DNA of 56,714 nt, taken from NCBI GenBank assembly GCA_964391095.1, contig CAYMJA010000004.1, positions 1 through 56,714 on the forward strand, given 5' to 3'. Both the position numbers and the translations under genes were made by a program. Positions 1-54,609 of the stretch are shown here, piece after piece. This DNA is from an uncultured Candidatus Saccharibacteria bacterium. Lineage in GTDB: Bacteria > Patescibacteriota > Minisyncoccia > Minisyncoccales > GWA2-38-27. Below the pieces are notes generated by a model. The model ran no database searches. It saw nothing but the letters and a program-made list of their open reading frames with translations, and was not told the origin of the DNA. How positions within the stretch are numbered: position 1 is the first letter of the stretch; every line of letters starts with the position of its first letter.

Positions 1-234
1 ATCTTCAAGTTTTGTAACTATCTTAATAAATCCATCAACGGAATTATATGTTTCATCAATTCTTGTTTTAATCTTAACTCGTTCTTCTTTGGCTTCTTTG
101 AAACCAACCAAAACATTGGTTCTATTTGCCCCCACATTTATTTTCGTCTTTTCAATACCTTCTTCAACTTTATTGAATCTCTCATCAATTTTACCAAATT
201 TCTTATCTAAATATTTTATTAATTCTTCATTCAT
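1..234 (-). CDS. hypothetical protein, N-terminal 78 codons only (gene runs off the left edge)
   Basis: Uninterrupted reverse frame from ATG at 234-232 to base 1 (MNEELIKYLDKKFGKIDERFNKVEEGIEKTK...), charged and coiled-coil-like. Not in the ORF track because no stop lies in the window. Promoter-like TTGACA-16-TAAAAT at 329-356. Confidence 0.45.
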   Translation of the reverse strand, partial: MNEELIKYLDKKFGKIDERFNKVEEGIEKTKINVGANRTNVLVGFKEAKEERVKIKTRIDETYNSVDGFIKIVTKLED

Positions 235-9237: not shown

Positions 9238-10173
9238 ATGGAAAAGGACATAAAAAAAATAACAATAGAAAATAAAAACTACCCGAAAGCACTAAGAGAA
9301 ATTAAGAAGGTGCCGAAAACCCTTTATTTTAAGGGAGAGATAAAATCTAATGAACTCTGTTTTGCTATAGTGGGAACAAGAAGATGTTCTTCTTATGGAA
9401 AACAAGTAGCTCTGGAAATTGCTGGAAACTTGGCTGAAGCAGGAATTACTATCGTTAGCGGCTTGGCTCCGGGAATTGATACTTTTGCTCATACAGCCGT
9501 AGTTGAACAAGGAAAAAGAACAATCGCTGTACTCGGCACAGGCCTTGATGAAAAAAGTATTTATCCAAAAGAAAATATCAAATTAGCTAACAAAATCGTT
9601 GAATTAGGGGGCTGCCTGATTTCAGAATATCCTCCGGGGACTCCGGGCAGCCGCTTTACTTTCCCTGACAGAAATCGAATAATTTCTGGCCTTTCTTTAG
9701 GCGCCTTAGTAGTTGAAGCTAAAGAAAAAAGCGGGGCTTTAATTACAGCAAATTATGCTCTTTCCCAAAAAAGAAAACTTTTCGCTATACCTGGTCCAAT
9801 CTATGCTTTAAACTCTCAGGGTCCTCATATCTTAATAAAAAAAGGGGCAAAGTTAGTTGACAATGCTAATGATATTTTGCAAGAATTAAACCTGCCCGCA
9901 TCGTTACGCTCGCCCGAAGATGCTGCATCGCTGCGAGCGGACGAAACGTTGCAGGCGGGTTTACTAACTCCGCCACCGCTAAGCCGAGACGGACCCCAAA
10001 CCCTTGAAGAAAATCTAATTTTAAATACTCTAAAAGAAGAGACCTTAGGGATTGACAAGATTATTGAGAAAACAAAATTAAAGGCAGCGACAGTAGCCAG
10101 TATTCTTACTGTTTTAGAAATAAAAGGAAGAATAAGAAATTTAGGGAGCAATATTTATGGGCTATCGCGCTGA
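9238..10173 (+). CDS. dprA: DNA-processing protein DprA (Smf)
   Basis: Rossmann-like core GLAPGIDTFAHTAVVEQGKRTIAVLGTGLD and FPDRNRIISGLS, plus a C-terminal winged-helix segment. Carries an in-frame GC-rich insert at 9891-9959. Confidence 0.9.
   Translation: MEKDIKKITIENKNYPKALREIKKVPKTLYFKGEIKSNELCFAIVGTRRCSSYGKQVALEIAGNLAEAGITIVSGLAPGIDTFAHTAVVEQGKRTIAVLGTGLDEKSIYPKENIKLANKIVELGGCLISEYPPGTPGSRFTFPDRNRIISGLSLGALVVEAKEKSGALITANYALSQKRKLFAIPGPIYALNSQGPHILIKKGAKLVDNANDILQELNLPASLRSPEDAASLRADETLQAGLLTPPPLSRDGPQTLEENLILNTLKEETLGIDKIIEKTKLKAATVASILTVLEIKGRIRNLGSNIYGLSR
9891..9959 (+). repeat. in-frame 69-nt GC-rich palindromic insert in dprA
   Basis: CCTGCCCGCATCGTTACGCTCGC...GCGAGCGGACGAAACGTTGCAGGCGGG, exactly 23 codons (LPASLRSPEDAASLRADETLQAG). 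Confidence 0.75.
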
Positions 10174-10198
10174 GAAATAATTAGAAATTAGAAATTTT

Positions 10199-12328
10199 AT
10201 GCAGCTTAATTCAAGATTATATGATGATACCTTAGCGAATCAAGGTTCTGCGAGCGTTAGCGAGCAGGTTCTTATAATAGTAGAAAGTCCAACGAAATCT
10301 CACACAATCGAACGCTTCTTAGGGCCGGGATATAGGGTTCTGTCTTCTTTTGGGCATATCCGAGATCTGCCAAAAGATGAACTTGGGATTGATGTTGAGC
10401 ATAACTTCAAACCAAAATACGTTATTCCCTCAAAATCAAAAAAAATTATCTTAAATTTAAAAAAAGAGGCGCAAAAAACAGAGAAAACCATAATCGCCAC
10501 CGATGAAGATAGAGAAGGAGAATCTATTGCCTGGCATCTCAGCCAGGTCCTTGATTTAAAAAATCCTCAACGAATTGTTTTTCACGAAATTACCAAATCT
10601 GCCATTGAAGAGGCCTTGAAAAATCCCAGACCAATTGATATCAATTTAGTTAATGCCCAGCAGGCAAGAAGAATCTTAGATAGAATCGTTGGTTACAAAC
10701 TTTCGCCATTTCTGTGGAAAAAAGTGGCCAGAAGATTATCTGCCGGGAGGGTTCAATCGGTTGCGGTAAGATTGGTGGTAGAAAGAGAAAGAGAAATTAA
10801 AAATTTTAAACCAACAGAATATTGGTCAATCGTCGCCACACTCCTCAAACTCAAAACTCACTCCAATCTATCGATTTCGGAAATCAATAGATTTGAAGCG
10901 ACTTTGGTCAAAAAAGGTGAAAAAACAATTCCTAAGTTTGGAATTAAATCAAAAAAAGAAGCGGATAAAATTACTAAAGGCCTAAAAGGAGCTGAATACA
11001 AAATTGAAAGAATTGAAAAAAAAGAAATAAAAAAGAATCCTCTGCCGCCTTTCACTACCAGCACCTTACAGCAAGAGTCCTGGAAAAGATTCAGATTTCC
11101 AGCAAAATTTACTATGCAGATTGCCCAACAACTCTACGAAAAAGGACACATTAGCTACCATCGAACAGATTCTTTAAATCTTTCTCAACAATCTCTATTT
11201 GCTGCTAAAAAATTTATTGAAAGTAATTTTGGCAAAGAATATCGGGCTGGTTTTTTTAGAAAATATAAGGCAAAAGGCAAAGTTCAAGAAGCCCACGAGG
11301 CAATAAGACCGACCCTTGCAAGCAAAACCCCTGATACCTTAAAATTAAAAGCCAAATTGGATAACAATCAATATCGCCTTTATGACCTTATCTGGCGAAG
11401 ATTTATTTCATCACAAATGGCCCAAGCTATTTTTGATTCTACTTCAATAGAAATTTTGGCCAGAAATTATACTTTTCGGGCTGCTGGCCAAATGTTAAAA
11501 TTTGATGGATTTCTAAAAGTTTACCCTATCAAATTCAAAGAAAATGAACTACCCGTTTTAGAAAAAGAAGAAATCCTAAAACTTATAAAACTAATCCCCT
11601 CTCAACACTCTACCCAGCCGCCTCCCAGATATAGCGAAGCCACTTTAATTAAAACTTTAGAAGAAAATGGAATTGGCCGTCCTTCAACTTATGCTCCGAC
11701 ATTATCAACAATTCAAAAAAGAAATTATGTTGAAAAAGACCAACAAAGGAAATTTTTTCCTACTGAAATCGGAACAGTGGTTAATGATCTTTTGGCAAAA
11801 CACTTTTCAAAAATTGTAGATATTAAATTTACTGCTGAAATGGAAGAGGATTTAGATAGAATTGCTTTAGGAAAAGAAAAATGGACTAAGATTTGCCAAA
11901 ACTTTTATAAGCCATTTGAAGAGAATCTTCAGAAAAAATATCAGGAAGTTTCTAAAAAGGACATTACTGAAAAACCGACCGGAAAAAAATGCCCAAAATG
12001 CGACGCTCCCCTGCTAATTCGCCTGGGGAAATTTGGGAGATTTTACGCTTGTTCTAAATTTCCAAAATGTAGATACACCGAATCCTTAGAAGAAAAATCT
12101 CTCAAGATAAAATGCCCGAAATGTAATAAAGGCAATATGGTTGAAAAAAGAACTAAAAAAGGAAAAGTATTTTACGGCTGCGACCGCTTTCCGAAATGCG
12201 ACTTTGCCTTATGGGATAAACCAACCGGAGAAAAATGCCCCAAATGCGGTTCTTTGCTGGTTGAAAAAGGAAAAAAAATAAAATGTTCTAACAAAGATTG
12301 CCAATTTGAAAAAAATATGGCAGAATAA
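10199..12328 (+). CDS. topA: DNA topoisomerase I (type IA) with three C-terminal zinc ribbons
   Basis: Toprim LIIVESPTKSHTIERFLG and DEDREGE. Active-site region ISYHRTDS. Repeated CPKC...C..C fingers. The first about 24 codons are an atypical extension, so the start is uncertain. Confidence 0.9.
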   Translation: MQLNSRLYDDTLANQGSASVSEQVLIIVESPTKSHTIERFLGPGYRVLSSFGHIRDLPKDELGIDVEHNFKPKYVIPSKSKKIILNLKKEAQKTEKTIIATDEDREGESIAWHLSQVLDLKNPQRIVFHEITKSAIEEALKNPRPIDINLVNAQQARRILDRIVGYKLSPFLWKKVARRLSAGRVQSVAVRLVVEREREIKNFKPTEYWSIVATLLKLKTHSNLSISEINRFEATLVKKGEKTIPKFGIKSKKEADKITKGLKGAEYKIERIEKKEIKKNPLPPFTTSTLQQESWKRFRFPAKFTMQIAQQLYEKGHISYHRTDSLNLSQQSLFAAKKFIESNFGKEYRAGFFRKYKAKGKVQEAHEAIRPTLASKTPDTLKLKAKLDNNQYRLYDLIWRRFISSQMAQAIFDSTSIEILARNYTFRAAGQMLKFDGFLKVYPIKFKENELPVLEKEEILKLIKLIPSQHSTQPPPRYSEATLIKTLEENGIGRPSTYAPTLSTIQKRNYVEKDQQRKFFPTEIGTVVNDLLAKHFSKIVDIKFTAEMEEDLDRIALGKEKWTKICQNFYKPFEENLQKKYQEVSKKDITEKPTGKKCPKCDAPLLIRLGKFGRFYACSKFPKCRYTESLEEKSLKIKCPKCNKGNMVEKRTKKGKVFYGCDRFPKCDFALWDKPTGEKCPKCGSLLVEKGKKIKCSNKDCQFEKNMAE
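10233..10275 (+). repeat. GGTTCT-bracketed mini-element, copy 2, inside the annotated 5' end of topA
   Basis: TAGCGAATCAAGGTTCTG-CGAGCGTTAGCGAGCA-GGTTCTTAT. Confidence 0.6.
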
Positions 12329-12354: not shown

Positions 12355-12438
12355 GCCGCGGTGGCGGAATTGGTTTACGCGTACGATTCAAAATCGTATA
12401 GGAGAAATCCTGTGTGGGTTCGAGTCCCACCCGCGGCA
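12355..12438 (+). tRNA. tRNA-Leu (anticodon CAA), long variable arm, CCA not encoded
   Basis: Hand-folded cloverleaf. Acceptor GCCGCGG/CCGCGGC. Anticodon stem TACGA/TCGTA with loop TTCAAAA. Variable arm AGGA/TCCT. T arm GTGGG-TTCGAGT-CCCAC. Discriminator A. Confidence 0.9.
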
Positions 12439-12559
12439 CAATGGAAACTTTAAGCGCTGGAAGTGCTTACAAATTTTCATTTTGGATGAGGATGTGGCGA
12501 GAATCCAACCTCCCGAATTGCGACGAGCGAAGTGAGGAGGTAATGCCTTCGGGCAACTT

Positions 12560-12580
12560 TTCGAGTTCCACCCGCGGCAC
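12560..12580 (+). repeat. direct repeat of the tRNA-Leu 3' end (20 of 21 nt identical to 12419-12439)
   Basis: TTCGAGTTCCACCCGCGGCAC compared with TTCGAGTCCCACCCGCGGCAC. The 120-nt interval between the copies is GC-rich. Confidence 0.85.
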
Positions 12581-12597
12581 TAGAACCACTTTTGAAT

Positions 12598-13277: not shown

Positions 13278-13634
13278 CTATGGTTTACTACCTATTCCGC
13301 TTGCCCCAATTGTTTCACCTTCTTTGTACCTGATAAAGGTTTTGTCACCTACCATTGCGCGTTTGACTTCCCCTGTTTCTGAATTCTCAAGAATGAAGTA
13401 GTGAAGGTGACCACCTACTGAAGCGGGCACGCGTTCCCTCACAACCCAGCCATTCCACCCTTGAATGAACTTCTGAGTGAAGTCTTCAGCTTGTGAAGAC
13501 TTCCTGCGGTACAGAGAGACGCCGGATCTTACAAACATGATGGTTCCAATGATGAAAAAAATCATCAAAATGGCTACAATAACAAGCAATAGGTCGAGCC
13601 GATTAAACCCTTTTGATTTCCTCAAACTTTTCAT
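13278..13634 (-). CDS. small protein with degenerate prepilin-like N-terminal signal/anchor
   Basis: MKSLRKSKGFNRLDLLLVIVAILMIFF... has a basic leader, Gly, then a hydrophobic helix with Asp at +5. It shares its promoter, leader, N-terminus and RKSSQAE linker with the 13904-15220 gene. Confidence 0.6.
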   Translation of the reverse strand: MKSLRKSKGFNRLDLLLVIVAILMIFFIIGTIMFVRSGVSLYRRKSSQAEDFTQKFIQGWNGWVVRERVPASVGGHLHYFILENSETGEVKRAMVGDKTFIRYKEGETIGASGIGSKP

Positions 13635-13768
13635 AATTCATCACTCCTTTCTTGAATTGTCTTATATTCAGTTCTCAAAGAACTATTTTTTAGAAGATAC
13701 CATATTAAAAAATATCTGTCAAGTTTTTGTATAAGTCTGTTGTAGTTGTAAAAGATGCAAATTGTCAG
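13487..13768 (-). repeat. duplicated 5' module, copy 1 (promoter, leader, SD, signal/anchor, linker)
   Basis: Aligns by eye with 15088-15360. Long identical runs include TTCTTGAATTGTCTTATATTCAGTTCTCAAAGAACTAT and ATATTAAAAAATATCTGTCAAGTTTTTGTA. Confidence 0.85.
13694..13722 (-). promoter_or_regulatory. sigma70-like promoter TTGACA-17-TATCTT
   Basis: Reverse-strand TTGACA (13717-13722) and TATCTT (13694-13699). Duplicated at 15290-15318. Confidence 0.6.
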
Positions 13769-13903: not shown

Positions 13904-15220
13904 CTAATCATAGAATAAATATTTTTTTCTTTTCTTCTTGAATTGCTCTAAGTCGCGCTGGTAACTTTGGACAATTTTTTCCGCAGGAACGCCCTTCTCC
14001 AGCATAAATCGTATCTTGTTTGTGCCGTTCGCTAAATCGAACATCCTTTTCCGCTTCTGAACACTCTCCAGTTTGAAATTGAATTTATCAGGGTACATCT
14101 TCATCAGAGTACCCATGATGTAGTATCCAACAGCAACAGGTTTAATCGTTCTTTCATCGGTAATGATTACCCTGACTCCTTGGCACAACTCGCCTTTATG
14201 GTGGAGATAGTAGGGTTTGAAATACATTGGTTGAAAATAAACCCCGGATAGCTTCAATGCATTTAATGTTTTTGAAAATTCTTCTGCATTTATCCAGGGA
14301 GCGCCAACCAGTTTGAATGGCAAGGTATAACCAACTCCAATATTTACTATCGGGAGCTCTCCCATTATGCCCGTAATGGGAAGAAACAATGCTGTGTCCA
14401 TTTCAGGAACGTGGGGTGACGTTGGAGTCCAGACAAGACCAGTGTTTCTCCAAGCCATGTCCCTTTTCCAGCCCTGCATCTTCACAACTTTCAGGTCGCA
14501 ATTAATCTCGCACTCCTTGTTAAAATATGTTGCGAGTTCCCCTATGGTCATTCCATGGACATAGGCTATTGGAGCTATTCCAATGAAAGACTTGAACTCT
14601 GGGTCAAGAACAGGACCACCTACAACCCATCCACCTATGGGATTGGGCCTGTCGAGGACGATGAATTTAATCTTATGTTCAGCCGCAGCTTCCATACAGT
14701 AGTACATTGTAGAGATATAGGTGTAGGATCTTGTACCAATATCCTGAATATCAAATATCAGGACATCAATGTTTTTCAACATTTCTGGGGTTGGTTTTCG
14801 GGTTTTTCCGTAAAGACTGTAAACGATTATACCTGTTTTTGGGTCTTTACTTCCTTCCACTGTTCCATGTACCCCGCCCCGGATGCCGTGCTCAGGGCCA
14901 AATAAAGCCTTAAGTTCAACACCAGGAAGCAAGGCAATGCGGTCAGCACTTGGACACAGATTGCTGTCCACACCAGTAGGATTAGTAACCAAACCGACCC
15001 TTTTACCCCAGATTAGATCTCGCTTCTCTTCTACAAGTACTTCAATACCCAGTTTTACAGCCGGTCTGAGTTTTACAGCCGGTTTCTCAGCCTGTGAAGA
15101 CTTTCTGTGCTCCAGAAAAGTGGGTATTGCAATCGCAGCAAGGATTCCAATGAATGTAATAACAATCAATAGCTCAATCAGGGTAAGCCCTTTTCTCTTT
15201 CTTTCTCTCAAAGTTTTCAT
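13904..15220 (-). CDS. prepilin-type N-terminal domain fused to a DUF1343/NamZ-like (exo-beta-N-acetylmuramidase family) domain
   Basis: N-terminus is KRKG-LTLIELLIVITFIGILAAIAIPTF. DUF1343 motifs: LVTNPTGVD, LFGPEHGIRG, TGIIVYSLYGK, DVLIFDIQDIGTRSYTYI, VLDRPNPIGG, HGMTIGELA. Confidence 0.8.
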   Translation of the reverse strand: MKTLRERKRKGLTLIELLIVITFIGILAAIAIPTFLEHRKSSQAEKPAVKLRPAVKLGIEVLVEEKRDLIWGKRVGLVTNPTGVDSNLCPSADRIALLPGVELKALFGPEHGIRGGVHGTVEGSKDPKTGIIVYSLYGKTRKPTPEMLKNIDVLIFDIQDIGTRSYTYISTMYYCMEAAAEHKIKFIVLDRPNPIGGWVVGGPVLDPEFKSFIGIAPIAYVHGMTIGELATYFNKECEINCDLKVVKMQGWKRDMAWRNTGLVWTPTSPHVPEMDTALFLPITGIMGELPIVNIGVGYTLPFKLVGAPWINAEEFSKTLNALKLSGVYFQPMYFKPYYLHHKGELCQGVRVIITDERTIKPVAVGYYIMGTLMKMYPDKFNFKLESVQKRKRMFDLANGTNKIRFMLEKGVPAEKIVQSYQRDLEQFKKKRKKYLFYD

Positions 15221-15360
15221 AAGTCATCACCTCCTTTCTTGAATTGTCTTATATTCAGTTCTCAAAGAACTATCAAACATCTATTTTTCAAGATAGCATA
15301 TTAAAAAATATCTGTCAAGTTTTTGTACAAGTTTATCGTAACTGTAAAAGATGCAAAATT
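15088..15360 (-). repeat. duplicated 5' module, copy 2
   Basis: Paralogous to 13487-13768. Extends from the RKSSQAE linker codons through the promoter to the stop codon of the PAP2 gene. Confidence 0.85.
15290..15318 (-). promoter_or_regulatory. sigma70-like promoter TTGACA-17-TATCTT
   Basis: Reverse-strand TTGACA (15313-15318) and TATCTT (15290-15295). Confidence 0.6.
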
Positions 15361-16752: not shown

Positions 16753-16765
16753 GATAAATTATTAA

Positions 16766-16902
16766 GCGAGGCAACCTGCTGAGGAGGACACACGGAGGCG
16801 AGCGGCCATGGTTTCCGAGCGAAGCGAGCGAGAGAGCGAGCCGAGTAACTAAGCTGAATTTTCTCGGTGGGAAAATTCAGCGGTCATCCGAAGTAGGTTG
16901 CC
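16766..16902 (-). repeat. GC-rich structured spacer between glyA and folD
   Basis: Outer stem GGCAACCT (16770-16777) pairs with AGGTTGCC (16895-16902). Inner perfect 10-bp hairpin GCTGAATTTT/AAAATTCAGC (16853-16881). GAGCGA-rich core. Confidence 0.6.
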
Positions 16903-23516: not shown

Positions 23517-24407
23517 TTAGCCGAGAAAGCCAGAAGCTGAGCCACAGTCCCGATGGGAATGGCCGCTGGCCCCGATACAGCTGAACTCAGGCCTCCCGAC
23601 ACCCCAGAAGAAGCAAGGGCAGCTGTCAAACAGGTTACTAACACTAGAAAAGTACTCGCAGCCGGCACAATATATGCTAAGATCTCCGTCCTTCTGTAAT
23701 CGCTCAGGATTAACCAATAAGATGGTGCTTACTGCATAAGGACCAAGTCCAAATTCGTTGGAAGAGAACATTACTCGGGCCCTTCGTACTGAACGACCAC
23801 GGTGACGTAGACCTGTTTGGACCGGAATAACTAAGAAATCCCCTGGGGTTTCTTTTTCCAACTTAGCAATGGCCCGTTGAGTTCTCCCAGTCAGGCGCAG
23901 GTATTTTGGACCAAGTTCGCCTTCTTGGTAGTTAAACCAATCCTCACGAGATTGAGCCATTAATTTGGTCATCAAGACCGTAGCATCATTGTAAGAACAG
24001 GCTACTTTGGATGGTTTGGGAATAACAAATAGTCCATCAGCTCCTTCAGGAAGTTTGAAGAAATCTTTGATAATCTCAGCCATTTTATTTACCTGACTGG
24101 CATCAAGCGCTCTAAACTCCTCAATCTGTTGAAGAACAGCAAGTTGGTCAGGAACACTCTTGGGGTGCCAACCTTCGGGATAACCATAAGTTGATTCCAG
24201 TGCTTCATTGGCATAGGGCAACTCACCCAACTTTTGAAGAATAGAAGTGATTTCTCTCTGAAAATCACCTCCTGCCTCAATTACTCTTTGGACACTATCT
24301 CCACCCAGACCGCTTTTACGTAAAGCTGCTTCAAGCAGTTCCTTGACCTTGGCTATTTGGCCATCAGTCATTTTCTCTTGTGGCGTGATCAATGTATCCA
24401 TTGTCAT
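23517..24407 (-). CDS. hypothetical protein, G+C-rich orphan with Cys-rich C-terminus
   Basis: 296-aa ORF with no family recognised. It has its own promoter, SD (AAAGGAGGG) and terminator. The second ATG at 24401 has better SD spacing. Confidence 0.55.
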   Translation of the reverse strand: MTMDTLITPQEKMTDGQIAKVKELLEAALRKSGLGGDSVQRVIEAGGDFQREITSILQKLGELPYANEALESTYGYPEGWHPKSVPDQLAVLQQIEEFRALDASQVNKMAEIIKDFFKLPEGADGLFVIPKPSKVACSYNDATVLMTKLMAQSREDWFNYQEGELGPKYLRLTGRTQRAIAKLEKETPGDFLVIPVQTGLRHRGRSVRRARVMFSSNEFGLGPYAVSTILLVNPERLQKDGDLSIYCAGCEYFSSVSNLFDSCPCFFWGVGRPEFSCIGASGHSHRDCGSASGFLG

Positions 24408-49944: not shown

Positions 49945-50937
49945 TTAGAATCTGTCGACTATATTTTTCGTTAAAAATTTTATTCCTAATTTCATCAACA
50001 TTGTAAGACCAAATAAGGCAACTAACACTTCTGCTCCTCTTAAAATAAAACTAAAAGTAATTCCTCCAGCCGCTCCTAATCCTAAAGAACCAAAAGCAAA
50101 GGCCAGAGCTATTTCCGAACTTCCTACTTTAGCCGGAAAAGGCAAAATATAAGATAGATAAATAAAAAATAATACTGCCAAAGCAGTCAAAATATTCATT
50201 TTCCCAATTAAAAAGAGAAGTAAGAACCAACAGCGAGCTAAAATTAAAAAATTTGCTGAAAAAGAAAGACCCAGTCCTTTCCACATTAAATTTTTTCTGA
50301 AATCAAAAAAATGAAAAATCTTTTTTTCAAAATCTTCAACTGCATAGCTATCTTTTCTTCCATTTATTCCCAAAAATTTGGGCAGCCACCTTAGAATACT
50401 TTCTTTTTTAAAAATTTTAAAATAAAAAACAGCTAACGCCATGGTTAAAATTCCTATAAAAATCACAATAGCTATTTCGAGATTTCCCAGGGAACGCCCA
50501 GTTAAAAAAAGAAAAGAAGTTGCTCCAAAAATTAAAAACAACGAAAGAACACTTATACTAAGCAACTTCTCAATGGTATTTAGAGTAAGATTTTCTTCCC
50601 AATTTAGAGAAAACTTTTTCTTAATAGCATAAATTTTAAACGCCTCTCCCCCAAAAAAACTGGTGGGAAATAAATAACTAACAGCAAAACTGGCAAACAG
50701 AATTTCTCCCAAATTAAAAACAGAGAAATTATATCCCTGAGATTTAGAAATAAATTTCCATTTCCAAATTTCAACTAACCAAATCAGCAATGTTATTCCT
50801 ATAATCACCAGCCCTTTATAGCCAGAAAAGGTAAAAAGAATTTCTTTTATCTCTTTCCATCCTACCCATTTAATAATCCATAAAAAAAGTCCGAGTCCAA
50901 TTAAAAAAGAAAATAAAAAAACTAAAATTTTTCTCAT
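49945..50937 (-). CDS. polytopic membrane protein, UPF0104/lysyl-PG-synthase TM-domain-like
   Basis: About eight TM helices, basic loops and a Gly-rich C-terminal helix. The family call is tentative. Confidence 0.5.
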   Translation of the reverse strand: MRKILVFLFSFLIGLGLFLWIIKWVGWKEIKEILFTFSGYKGLVIIGITLLIWLVEIWKWKFISKSQGYNFSVFNLGEILFASFAVSYLFPTSFFGGEAFKIYAIKKKFSLNWEENLTLNTIEKLLSISVLSLFLIFGATSFLFLTGRSLGNLEIAIVIFIGILTMALAVFYFKIFKKESILRWLPKFLGINGRKDSYAVEDFEKKIFHFFDFRKNLMWKGLGLSFSANFLILARCWFLLLFLIGKMNILTALAVLFFIYLSYILPFPAKVGSSEIALAFAFGSLGLGAAGGITFSFILRGAEVLVALFGLTMLMKLGIKFLTKNIVDRF

Positions 50938-50946
50938 AATTCAAGT

Positions 50947-51798
50947 TTATATGCCCAAACAATAATCAATCAAGGTTCTGGCGTTTTCTATGGCATATCC
51001 ATAAGCATCATTATTAAAATAGACATAGATATCTAAGTTTTGTTTTAAATATTTTTTGATCTTTTCTGCCAATTTTTTTAGCTCCTTCTGGGAATAATTA
51101 GAAGTATAAAGAACCTTCCCGCCATGCATCCTAATGTAGAGAAAATCGCTGGTAATTATCTCCTCAAAGGGCCACTGGGGTGAATCTGCCAAACAAAGAG
51201 AAATATTTTTTTGCTTTTTTAAAATCTGATAAACATCCTCTGAAAACCAAGTTGGGTGACGAAATTCCAAAACAAATCGATATTTGTGGTTAGTTTTCTC
51301 TACCCCGTTAGAGATACATTTGCTCTCTATCTCTTTTTCACCCCTAAAATCTCTAACGGGGTCTACCATTTCAATAAATTCTTTTAACCTCCCTAAGTCT
51401 TTTTTCCAAAGAGGTGGTAACTGAAACAAAAAAGGACCAAGTTTATTTTTTAGACGCAGGGCTCTTTCCAGAAATGTTTTCCAAGCGGTTTTGCACTGAT
51501 GGAGATATTTAATATGGGTAATATAGCGAGAGACCTTTACTGCAAAAATAAAATCCTTGTTTGTTCTTTCTCTCCAATTAGAAAAACTCTTTGAAGAAGG
51601 TAATTTATAAAAAGGGTAATTCATCTCTACCGTATTAAAATGTTTAGCATAGTATGCCAGCTGTTTTGTTTTTGGCAGTCCCCTGGGATAAAAAACATCA
51701 TTTTCCCAATGAGGATAAGAGTAGCCGGAAGTTCCGATATATAGCTTTGACCCTTCACCTTTAGCCGAAGGTGAAGGGTTTAAATTTGTTTTTAACAT
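50947..51798 (-). CDS. DUF72 (YecE-like) domain protein
   Basis: IGTSGYSYPHW, YAKHFNTVEMNYPFYKLP and EFRHPTWF. Confidence 0.85.
   Translation of the reverse strand: MLKTNLNPSPSAKGEGSKLYIGTSGYSYPHWENDVFYPRGLPKTKQLAYYAKHFNTVEMNYPFYKLPSSKSFSNWRERTNKDFIFAVKVSRYITHIKYLHQCKTAWKTFLERALRLKNKLGPFLFQLPPLWKKDLGRLKEFIEMVDPVRDFRGEKEIESKCISNGVEKTNHKYRFVLEFRHPTWFSEDVYQILKKQKNISLCLADSPQWPFEEIITSDFLYIRMHGGKVLYTSNYSQKELKKLAEKIKKYLKQNLDIYVYFNNDAYGYAIENARTLIDYCLGI
51299..51367. mobile_element. in-frame palindromic insertion with 13-bp perfect inverted repeats and a TCTACC direct repeat
   Basis: CCCCGTTAGAGAT (51303-51315) pairs with ATCTCTAACGGGG (51349-51361). TCTACC occurs at 51299-51304 and 51362-51367. The 63-nt offset equals 21 codons. 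Confidence 0.5.

Positions 51799-52804: not shown

Positions 52805-54609
<1,805 letters not shown>

Follow-up and report, generated by a model that had tools for sequence, protein, structure and literature searches.

What is a GC-rich palindrome doing in frame within an AT-rich dprA gene, and why do its two ends recur inside groEL? The question is raised by a stretch of 56,714 nucleotides from an uncultured Candidatus Saccharibacteria bacterium (contig CAYMJA010000004.1 of assembly GCA_964391095.1), which was analysed as a whole and is called the window here (35% G+C). In this window, dprA occupies positions 9238-10173 of the forward strand and encodes 311 residues, with the Pfam domains DNA_processg_A (E 4.9e-75, residues 3-208) and DprA_WH (E 1.9e-10, residues 253-302). 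GroEL, encoded on the reverse strand at 52805-54487, comprises 560 residues from the ATG at 54487, followed by a stop codon, and matches Cpn60_TCP1 (E 7.3e-70). The dprA gene is interrupted in frame by a 69-nt GC-rich hairpin at 9891-9959 (+), CCTGCCCGCATCGTTACGCTCGCCCGAAGATGCTGCATCGCTGCGAGCGGACGAAACGTTGCAGGCGGG, whose 23 codons specify residues ~219-241 (LPASLRSPEDAASLRADETLQAG) between the two Pfam domains. A 36-nt hairpin lies in frame in groEL at 53129-53164 (-) and codes for 12 residues. We consider it rather likely that both inserts are solo copies of a widespread hairpin repeat that is cognate to a small GIY-YIG gene homologous to ssnA, and that the autonomous unit of this repeat is a cassette consisting of the hairpin, the nuclease gene, and a tRNA gene.

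A first-pass annotation of the window had described the dprA segment as strikingly GC-rich, placed between the catalytic and the winged-helix domain, and ended by an imperfect inverted repeat. This description holds: the insert has 67% G+C versus 37% for the remainder of dprA, the Pfam borders enclose it, and both copies (the groEL insert at 69% G+C) fold better than their shuffles. Folded as RNA, the dprA copy reaches -33.8 kcal/mol (z -3.6) and the groEL copy -18.4 kcal/mol (z -2.5); folded as DNA, they reach -18.2 and -11.2 kcal/mol, with z about -2. The 13-mer AACCTGCCCGCAT occurs exactly twice in the window, at 9889-9901 (+) and 53154-53166 (-), and so does the 13-mer CGTTGCAGGCGGG, at 9947-9959 (+) and 53129-53141 (-). 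With two mismatches allowed, chance would supply 0.63 and 0.22 matches of the two 13-mers, respectively, and a pattern joining both ends matches twice in the window compared with 0.00 expected from 100 shuffles. The exact 13-nt ends attributed earlier to both inserts are thereby recovered, while the groEL span given with them (53128-53164) has to be corrected to 53129-53164 (-), i.e., 36 nt. The two genes read these ends differently, dprA as AAC CTG CCC GCA (NLPA) and groEL as CCT GCC CGC ATT (PARI). Because the same ends are read in different frames, the likeness belongs to the DNA and not to the protein, and the proposal that the two inserts form one DNA-level family is upheld.

The plainest alternative is an ordinary, lineage-specific expansion of a loop and a linker, or an assembly artefact, with ends shared by chance. 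Both sites are indeed length-variable among relatives. The likeness at the nucleotide level in different frames, the shuffle expectation of 0.00, and the hundreds of copies found elsewhere are, however, incompatible with it, as is the recovery of the element allele with zero differences in contigs of four independent salt-marsh metagenome runs, which cannot be an assembly accident. Shuffles, copies elsewhere, and independent runs already refute this explanation, and its probability is practically nil. In the same four runs the 69-nt form is single-copy, and it was rejected as a repeat in its own right.

How far the repeat extends beyond the window was determined by scanning one genome per species (GTDB), IMG/VR, and JGI metagenomes for the termini. 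The first pattern used on the genomes was loose and returned mostly chance matches in G+C-rich genomes, which were removed by a folding-energy filter, and the metagenome scan was limited to ends of the window type. As the feet of the hairpin were fixed by the search patterns, divergent relatives are under-sampled and the pairing of the feet is no independent test. The genome and viral scans gave at least 166 copies passing the folding filter, in about 149 loci, and the metagenome scan at least 122 further copies, so that the termini, which the annotation had suggested to look for elsewhere, are present in hundreds of other places. Among the matches listed, 36 nt is the modal length (85 of 166 in the genome and viral set, 81 of 122 in the metagenome set). 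In its best fold, the consensus unit CCTGCCCGCAATGCTnCGCATAGCGnTGCAGGCGGG has a single-stranded CCTG tail at the 5' end, followed by helices of 5 bp (the G/C foot), 3 bp (middle), and 4 bp (apical). Covariation is seen between positions 16 and 26 (A-U 15, U-A 15, G-C 3), and the variable apex is kept paired by compensatory changes. A covariance model of 42 family members matches the groEL copy with 58.9 bits (E 1.7e-15); run over the window with filters off, it gave only this copy and a weak partial match to the dprA copy, and no further family copies were found, which leaves two in 56.7 kb. Searches of Rfam with gathering thresholds returned nothing for the hairpin in the window, and searches at E<=1 returned nothing for three hairpin loci.

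The hosts include many classes of Patescibacteria, among them Paceibacteria/Nomurabacteria, Saccharibacteria, Microgenomates, Berkelbacteria, and Magasanikbacteria. Contigs of 54-60% G+C from Verrucomicrobia, Kiritimatiellia, and Lentisphaerae also carry the hairpin, one of them 3.6 Mb long. Some low-G+C metagenome-assembled genomes among the hosts bear Gammaproteobacteria or Bdellovibrionales labels, which are doubtful, and two short contigs labelled archaeal may be mis-binned. In IMG/VR, the hairpin is found on 21 contigs. One of these, the viral-classed IMGVR_UViG_3300049984_000018 (L230/L243; 30.5 kb, 60% G+C), holds four canonical 36-nt copies and, judged by sequence motifs, DNA methyltransferase-like genes.

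Set against this family, the two inserts in the window prove to be of different build. The groEL copy is one synonymous nucleotide away from a 36-mer seen at least 52 times in unrelated metagenome contigs of 30-56% G+C. In the dprA copy, the left half of an outer unit (9891-9909, +; CCTG tail and 5' arm) and its right half (9943-9959, +; 3' arm) join to a 36-mer with two mismatches to CCTGCCCGCATCGCTACGCGAAGCGTTGCAGGCGGG, a variant seen at least 12 times in metagenomes. Between them, at the apex of the outer unit, lies an inner 33-nt hairpin (9910-9942, +) with 27 of 33 identities to the 33-nt subfamily CCTGCCCGAAGCTGCTGCATCGCTGCAGGCGGG (alignment score 43 versus a shuffle mean of 10.3 and maximum of 25). 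This subfamily is nested in other elements too (L443, L445), and 69-72-nt forms of like build recur, some directly upstream of the nuclease gene described below (L264, L281, L288). As aligned, the dprA copy consists of a 36-nt unit that carries a second hairpin of 33 nt in its tip, and the groEL copy is a canonical unit. The earlier suggestion that the groEL copy is an internally deleted version of the dprA copy is not borne out, as the 36-nt form is the canonical one and the dprA copy a composite.

Alignment with orthologues likewise bears out the expectation of lineage-specific insertion. The closest relatives of DprA (75-76% identical) have 286-297 residues compared with 311 and are devoid of ~22 linker residues. 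The closest GroEL relative (P0122, 86% identical) has 545 residues compared with 560 and is devoid of the segment: its loop is encoded by ...GCC GAT GCC GAC GGG GAT GAA..., where the window reads ...AAA GAA [36 nt] GAT GAA... Another GroEL (P0140, 80% identical) carries a different variant of the element, PARNASSIADAGG, at the exact same codon boundary before DEKTG. One DprA relative (P0049) has a copy at another site, within the catalytic domain, and the topA gene adjoining it has a near-identical copy that differs by 1 nt. Furthermore, 99 nt of the window correspond to 36 nt in a related contig of run X5. At each of the two sites, an end of the element coincides with native sequence, namely ELNLP (AAC CTN CCN), which is also encoded by the orthologues, in dprA, and the native Gly codon before DEKTG in groEL, and the junctions can therefore not be fixed to the base. 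The leading AA of the shared end is native gene sequence, as is probably the AAC CTN CC of dprA.

With respect to the proteins, the AlphaFold model of DprA has predicted local distance difference test (pLDDT) values of 52, 37, and 32 for the 10-residue blocks of 221-250, compared with 87-88 for 201-220 and 74-91 for 251-280. The groEL insert sits in the loop preceding the GDEKTG motif. In the alignment with the best-matching solved chaperonin, this loop is a gap, and the contiguous alignment with E. coli GroEL ends at residue 428. We take it to be the loop of the equatorial domain that immediately precedes E434, which belongs to the ring-ring interface. Several relatives show insertions of other kinds. 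GroEL P0124 contains DYNPPATSSHPDKSGRAP, a second in-frame insert family at the protein level, and several DprA relatives (P0034, P0036, P0037, P0042, P0120) have N-terminal extensions such as DYNPPTTSSHSSLRSEWAP; judging from these sequences, more than one repeat family of this sort is probably present in the genomes of these relatives. DprA P0114 has an unrelated insert of 18 residues, AEASLHLSPRPTSWGSAS, in the same linker. GroEL P0123 has 773 residues, ~230 more than other GroELs, and this large insertion is possibly an intein.

Copies inside genes are a general property of the family. About half of the copies in AT-rich hosts (defined as below 48% G+C), among the matches listed, sit in frame in long open frames, i.e., in stop-free stretches of at least 150 codons. 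The interrupted genes serve DNA metabolism and repair (topA, gyrA, uvrC, recG twice, a DHH phosphoesterase, an HhH-GPD glycosylase, ribonucleotide reductase, ftsK), translation (rpsA, pheT, ileS-type synthetases, gltX, lepA, thiI), envelope and secretion (two Mur ligases, a penicillin-binding protein, secA), and energy or redox metabolism (atpG, a thioredoxin). Among the matches listed for AT-rich hosts, the length is a multiple of three in 57 of 58 long-frame copies of the genome set and in all 49 of the metagenome set; outside long frames, the lengths in the genome set fall into the three classes modulo 3 as 21/17/8, and in the metagenome set the 36-nt form dominates both inside and outside open frames. 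One sense frame, CCT GCC CGC (P-A-R-x...x-A-G-G), is used by 44 of the 58 genome-set copies listed, and the listed copies of the window-type subfamily are more mixed, with 23 in frame 0 and 12 in frame +2 (LPALLRKALQAG).

These constraints of length and frame argue for inserts that are translated and not removed, and the two inserts in the window would then add 23 residues to DprA and 12 to GroEL. It is conceivable that the segments are instead excised from the mRNA or skipped by the ribosome, in the manner of mini-introns or the byps of yeast mitochondria, which strong GC-rich hairpins in AT-rich genes do resemble. Removal would, however, leave length and frame unconstrained. Outside long frames, the lengths in the genome set are spread over the three classes modulo 3, whereas 106 of 107 long-frame copies in AT-rich hosts are multiples of three, free of stops, and biased to one frame. 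We hold this explanation to be very improbable. The likeness to the GC clusters and byps of yeast mitochondria goes as far as short GC-rich palindromes that invade AT-rich genomes including coding regions and whose mobilising enzyme is unknown; those elements are organellar and are bypassed in translation, whereas the constraints found here indicate read-through.

The question of how the copies reach their sites is less easily settled. Solo copies could have spread without any transposition, through homologous or microhomology recombination of imported DNA or through gene conversion from a cassette, with the nuclease only processing or restricting single-stranded DNA, a part that has been proposed for it in Neisseria. 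Both sites in the window show microhomology (NLP in dprA, and in groEL the Gly codon that precedes DEKTG). In addition, a copy occupies the identical groEL codon boundary in two lineages, hosts that differ greatly carry identical 36-mers, and SsnA modulates transformation in Neisseria (PMC11893778). On the other hand, the insertions lie in more than 30 unrelated genes with no flanks in common. Copies are also nested, in either orientation, or arranged in tandem (L134, L193, L238, L197, L443, L445), and nested insertions sit precisely at hairpin apices, which is more like active insertion. Overall, spread by recombination alone appears unlikely.

All-against-all clustering of 2,963 open reading frames (ORFs) from the 149 hairpin loci yielded, besides housekeeping genes, two recurrent families: a GIY-YIG protein of ~80-90 residues (7 loci) and a four-helix-bundle 'IVS' protein (6 loci). 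Of the GIY-YIG loci in this clustering, four of seven have the hairpin immediately 5' of the GIY-YIG gene. The four-helix-bundle genes (L042, L120, L195, L209, and others; 6 of 149 loci) lie within a few hundred nucleotides of hairpins and on inspection of their sequences resemble the '23S rRNA intervening sequence protein' type; as such genes are common, their proximity may be due to chance.

A sample blind to the hairpin was obtained by fetching 80 loci (L252-L331) with GIY-YIG peptide patterns alone, which were taken from an alignment of three sequences. Upstream of the GIY-YIG start, a hairpin is found in 65 of these 80 loci when up to two mismatches are allowed in the feet and in 49 when matching is strict; it occurs in either orientation and ends 9-52 nt (median 18) before the start. 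A second hairpin follows just downstream of the gene in 14 loci. Moreover, in 61 of the 80 loci the GIY-YIG stop codon is followed by a tRNA gene on the same strand, at a median distance of 3 nt. These tRNAs have 13 identities, with Gln and Leu being the commonest. Where both features are present, the 8+8 nt around the hairpin form a contiguous 5' piece of the same tRNA in 40 of 55 loci (control 0 of 55). The order is hence tRNA nt 1..x, hairpin, tRNA nt x+1..~25, GIY-YIG ORF, and complete tRNA, with the split point x near nt 9/10 or in the D-loop. Such a cassette has the look of an element for which tRNA genes are the targets and which restores them on insertion.

The proteins of 78-92 residues contain the Pfam domain GIY-YIG alone (E 5e-16 to 8e-18) and no other domain, and the residues Y, Y, G, R, H, N, and E are invariant; NCBIfam has no model specific for this protein. 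A tblastn search of PLSDB aligned it at 39% identity over 64 residues (pairwise E 2e-12) with a GIY-YIG ORF of Neisseria gonorrhoeae that is surrounded by seven NTS repeats within 1.2 kb and is the gonococcal homologue of ssnA. The matched record (L332, NZ_CP119142.1) is a 2.17-Mb N. gonorrhoeae chromosome that is filed in PLSDB as a plasmid. On this sequence evidence, the Patescibacterial protein is an Ssn homologue, and the hairpin would play the part of its Ssn-related motif (SRM).

SsnA of Neisseria meningitidis is a single-domain GIY-YIG protein of 94 residues (CDD cd10448) that binds the NTS (NTS/dRS3) hairpin in single-stranded DNA only and cuts one strand just upstream of it (Chenal et al. 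2025, PMC11893778). SRMs flank 71% of its homologues, symbionts including Rickettsia and Wolbachia are over-represented among SRM-rich genomes, and the NTS-ssnA-NTS layout, which resembles an insertion sequence, belongs to a system that modulates natural transformation in Neisseria (PMC11893778). The system described here agrees with this in its small gene (~80-94 residues, a single GIY-YIG domain) flanked by its own dispersed hairpin repeat of 20-50 nt, in the directional build of that repeat (a short conserved 5' tail followed by the hairpin), in the homology of the proteins, and in hosts enriched in symbionts and parasites. By analogy with SsnA, the Patescibacterial protein is predicted to be a nuclease. 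There are also clear differences. The hairpin sequence is unrelated, with CCTG in place of CGTC, and about half of the copies in AT-rich hosts are intragenic and in frame, compared with 2% of the NTS in N. meningitidis (PMC11893778). The cassette adjoins a tRNA gene and has its hairpin within a duplicated 5' tRNA fragment; the main text of the paper on SsnA mentions neither tRNA genes nor Patescibacteria (PMC11893778).

A conventional transposase (of RAYT, IS200/IS605 Y1, or DDE type) might nevertheless move the hairpins as it does repetitive extragenic palindromes (REPs) or miniature inverted-repeat transposable elements, in which case the GIY-YIG gene would be a mere neighbour or insertion target. 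The 36-nt size, the anatomy of tag plus palindrome, and the nesting are REP-like, and Ssn nucleases have no known transposition chemistry. Palindromes of the REP type tagged with GTAG or CGTC are intragenic in several species, and in many cases the gene concerned serves replication or repair (Di Nocera et al. 2013, PMC3733652). The likeness includes 20-40-nt palindromes, a 4-nt tag, and an enzyme gene flanked by its own repeats (the 'REPtron'). The partner gene here is, however, a GIY-YIG nuclease and not a Y1 HUH transposase, and the hairpin has nearly the same termini in different phyla, unlike the species-specific REPs. Among the matches listed, none of 166 copies has a GTAG or CGTC tag at the hairpin ends, and target-site duplications are lacking. 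No transposase-like family was apparent among the clusters of ORFs from the 149 loci, of which representatives were inspected but no Pfam or Y1 profile scan was made. Finally, the hairpin stands beside 61-81% of the GIY-YIG genes that were sampled independently of it. A conventional transposase is, on balance, quite unlikely to be the mover.

The comparison of the inserts with Rickettsia palindromic elements (RPEs), which the first-pass annotation had drawn, is apt. Both are palindromes in frame in essential or housekeeping genes of host-dependent bacteria with reduced genomes, where RPEs add surface peptides to the proteins and the present inserts probably do so too. RPEs measure about 100-150 bp, are restricted to Rickettsia, and form the families RPE-1 to RPE-8; most of their copies share one reading frame, as is the case here. 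The present element differs in its 36 nt, the lack of CGTC, its distribution across phyla, and the lack of evident sequence likeness, although RPE sequences were not compared with it directly. RPEs carry the CGTC tag, which is the tetranucleotide that starts the NTS (PMC3733652). A link between RPEs and Ssn systems is plausible, given that RPEs end in CGTC, NTS begins with it, and Rickettsia is among the SRM-rich genera. A small GIY-YIG gene directly beside tRNA genes that spreads together with its flanks is also known from phage T4 (SegB, PMC2330249). SegB-type enzymes, however, have extra DNA-binding domains, cut double-stranded DNA, and come with no dispersed hairpin repeat. The element thus acts like an RPE and like an SRM, lies outside the RPE families, and fails the published SRM motif. 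Searches of the literature by sequence, peptide, and topic found no description of it. The statement in the annotation that no equivalent was known therefore stands for Patescibacteria, although related ground is covered by the work on intragenic REP-like repeats (PMC3733652) and on hairpins paired with GIY-YIG genes (PMC11893778). As far as we found, three features are undescribed: the in-frame invasion of Patescibacterial housekeeping genes, the cassette tied to tRNA genes, and the near-identity of the repeat across phyla.

From these elements a mechanism can be proposed in which autonomy resides in the cassette. Its intermediate, circular or single-stranded, would consist of hairpin, tRNA(x+1..25), ORF, and tRNA(1..x). 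Cut on the 5' side of the hairpin and then ligated between nt x and x+1 of a tRNA gene, this intermediate would give exactly the observed layout with a whole tRNA rebuilt. Solo hairpins would be non-autonomous offspring, standing to the cassette as REPs stand to RAYT transposases, and minimal substrates of the same reaction that land anywhere DNA is single-stranded, often in the tips of other hairpins. We infer that the nuclease mobilises the hairpins either by cleaving and rejoining single-stranded DNA or through copying during repair. Inside genes, purifying selection would retain only harmless in-frame copies, namely those whose length is a multiple of three, that contain no stop codon, that form a short hydrophilic loop bounded by Pro and Gly, and that sit at a permissive site. 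In the window, such sites would be the linker between the catalytic and winged-helix domains of DprA and the variable loop of the equatorial domain of GroEL. The bolder form of this proposal holds that an Ssn-type gene and its hairpin make up an autonomous single-stranded-DNA element, which inserts in the D-arm region of tRNA genes, rebuilds the tRNA, and sheds 36-nt solo hairpins. Across phyla, these would insert into hairpin tips and into genes, in which selection would make protein loops of them. We put it forward tentatively, as a possibility that falls somewhat short of even odds.

Hairpins and the GIY-YIG gene occur together in at least nine other scanned genomes. In favour of solo copies cognate to an Ssn-type gene, the solo variant matches the cassette variant in some genomes (JBDRFV01, CAZLSZ01, CAZKRU01). 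Several observations weigh against this reading. In several genomes, the solo variants are unlike the hairpin of the cassette, and the 56.7-kb window contains no GIY-YIG gene, so that the cognate enzyme of this genome is unseen. Had the inserted copies simply decayed by vertical descent, identical 36-mers in hosts of 30-56% G+C would not be accounted for. The insertion sites show no target motif, and 120 of 132 copies have no flanking direct repeat of at least 2 nt as a target-site duplication. The GTC/CGTC tag of the SRM is absent from the hairpin, and the SRM motif HGTCWY..YYVSBRH..WNVSBRG..RNCYNB matches none of the 166 copies with their flanks, compared with eight matches in a 2.6-kb Neisseria control. 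Even for the Ssn system of Neisseria, no mobility mechanism or transposition chemistry is established (PMC11893778). With regard to the inserts as parts of proteins, no RNA runs holding this genome were found, and the predicted structure of GroEL, with a mean pLDDT of 39, is too poor for use.

The window contains further repeats and G+C-rich segments. Two G+C-rich islands, an intergenic one at 16765-16849 (85 nt, 65% G+C, rich in GCGAGCGA motifs) and another at 23528-23625 (98 nt, 63% G+C) at the 3' end of the ORF 23517-24407, were considered as family members over 16760-16855 and 23525-23630 and rejected, as they fold no better than shuffles and stand outside the hairpin family. An intergenic repeat of ~50 nt, TTCAAGATTATATGAT.ATAC.TTAGCGAA.CAAGGTTCTG...GGTTCTTAT, with promoter-like hexamers, occurs at 259-306, 10206-10253, and 50936-50983. 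In Logan contigs, the depth rises from about 10 to about 800 at 10216-10249, and this repeat must accordingly be common to very many places or genomes in the salt-marsh samples; Rfam has no match to the region 10150-10340. A tRNA-Leu(caa) gene at 12355-12439 is followed ~110 nt on by a direct repeat of its 3' end (TTCGAGTTCCACCCGCGGCAC, 12549-12582), which is reminiscent of the attachment site or the scar of a small element that has integrated. Two direct repeats of ~118 nt (13644-13761 and 15231-15357; 43 nt 100% identical and 74 nt 88% identical) lie just upstream of the minus-strand ORFs 13278-13634 and 13904-15220, respectively, and end in AAAGGAG, which is like a ribosome-binding site; this placement and ending indicate that the two ORFs share one leader or promoter.

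To our knowledge, the genomes of Patescibacteria (the candidate phyla radiation) are tiny, and hardly any mobile DNA has been recognised in them. The repeat family described here has nevertheless entered GroEL, DprA, topoisomerases, gyrase, SecA, RecG, and tRNA synthetases, among others, and would add the same dodecapeptide to unrelated proteins. The paradox known from Rickettsia, where selfish palindromes are tolerated in essential proteins, is thereby extended to another part of the bacterial tree. In contrast to Rickettsia, it comes here with a concrete candidate enzyme, an SsnA-like nuclease presumably specific for single-stranded DNA, and with a defined hairpin-nuclease-tRNA cassette. Ssn nucleases are in development as tools for single-stranded DNA, and their known hairpin specificities would be widened. 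Alignments and trees based on marker genes such as GroEL are distorted by the inserts, which also give rise to spurious 'conserved peptides' when metagenomic proteins are clustered. The viral-classed contigs with hairpins, if they are true phages, are possible carriers of the repeat between hosts. Should the Ssn-type gene and its hairpin truly be an autonomous single-stranded-DNA element, it would provide the long-missing mobilising enzyme for in-frame palindromes of the RPE kind. The element may then also have a role in controlling natural transformation, and its copies may mark essential genes for that control in Patescibacteria.

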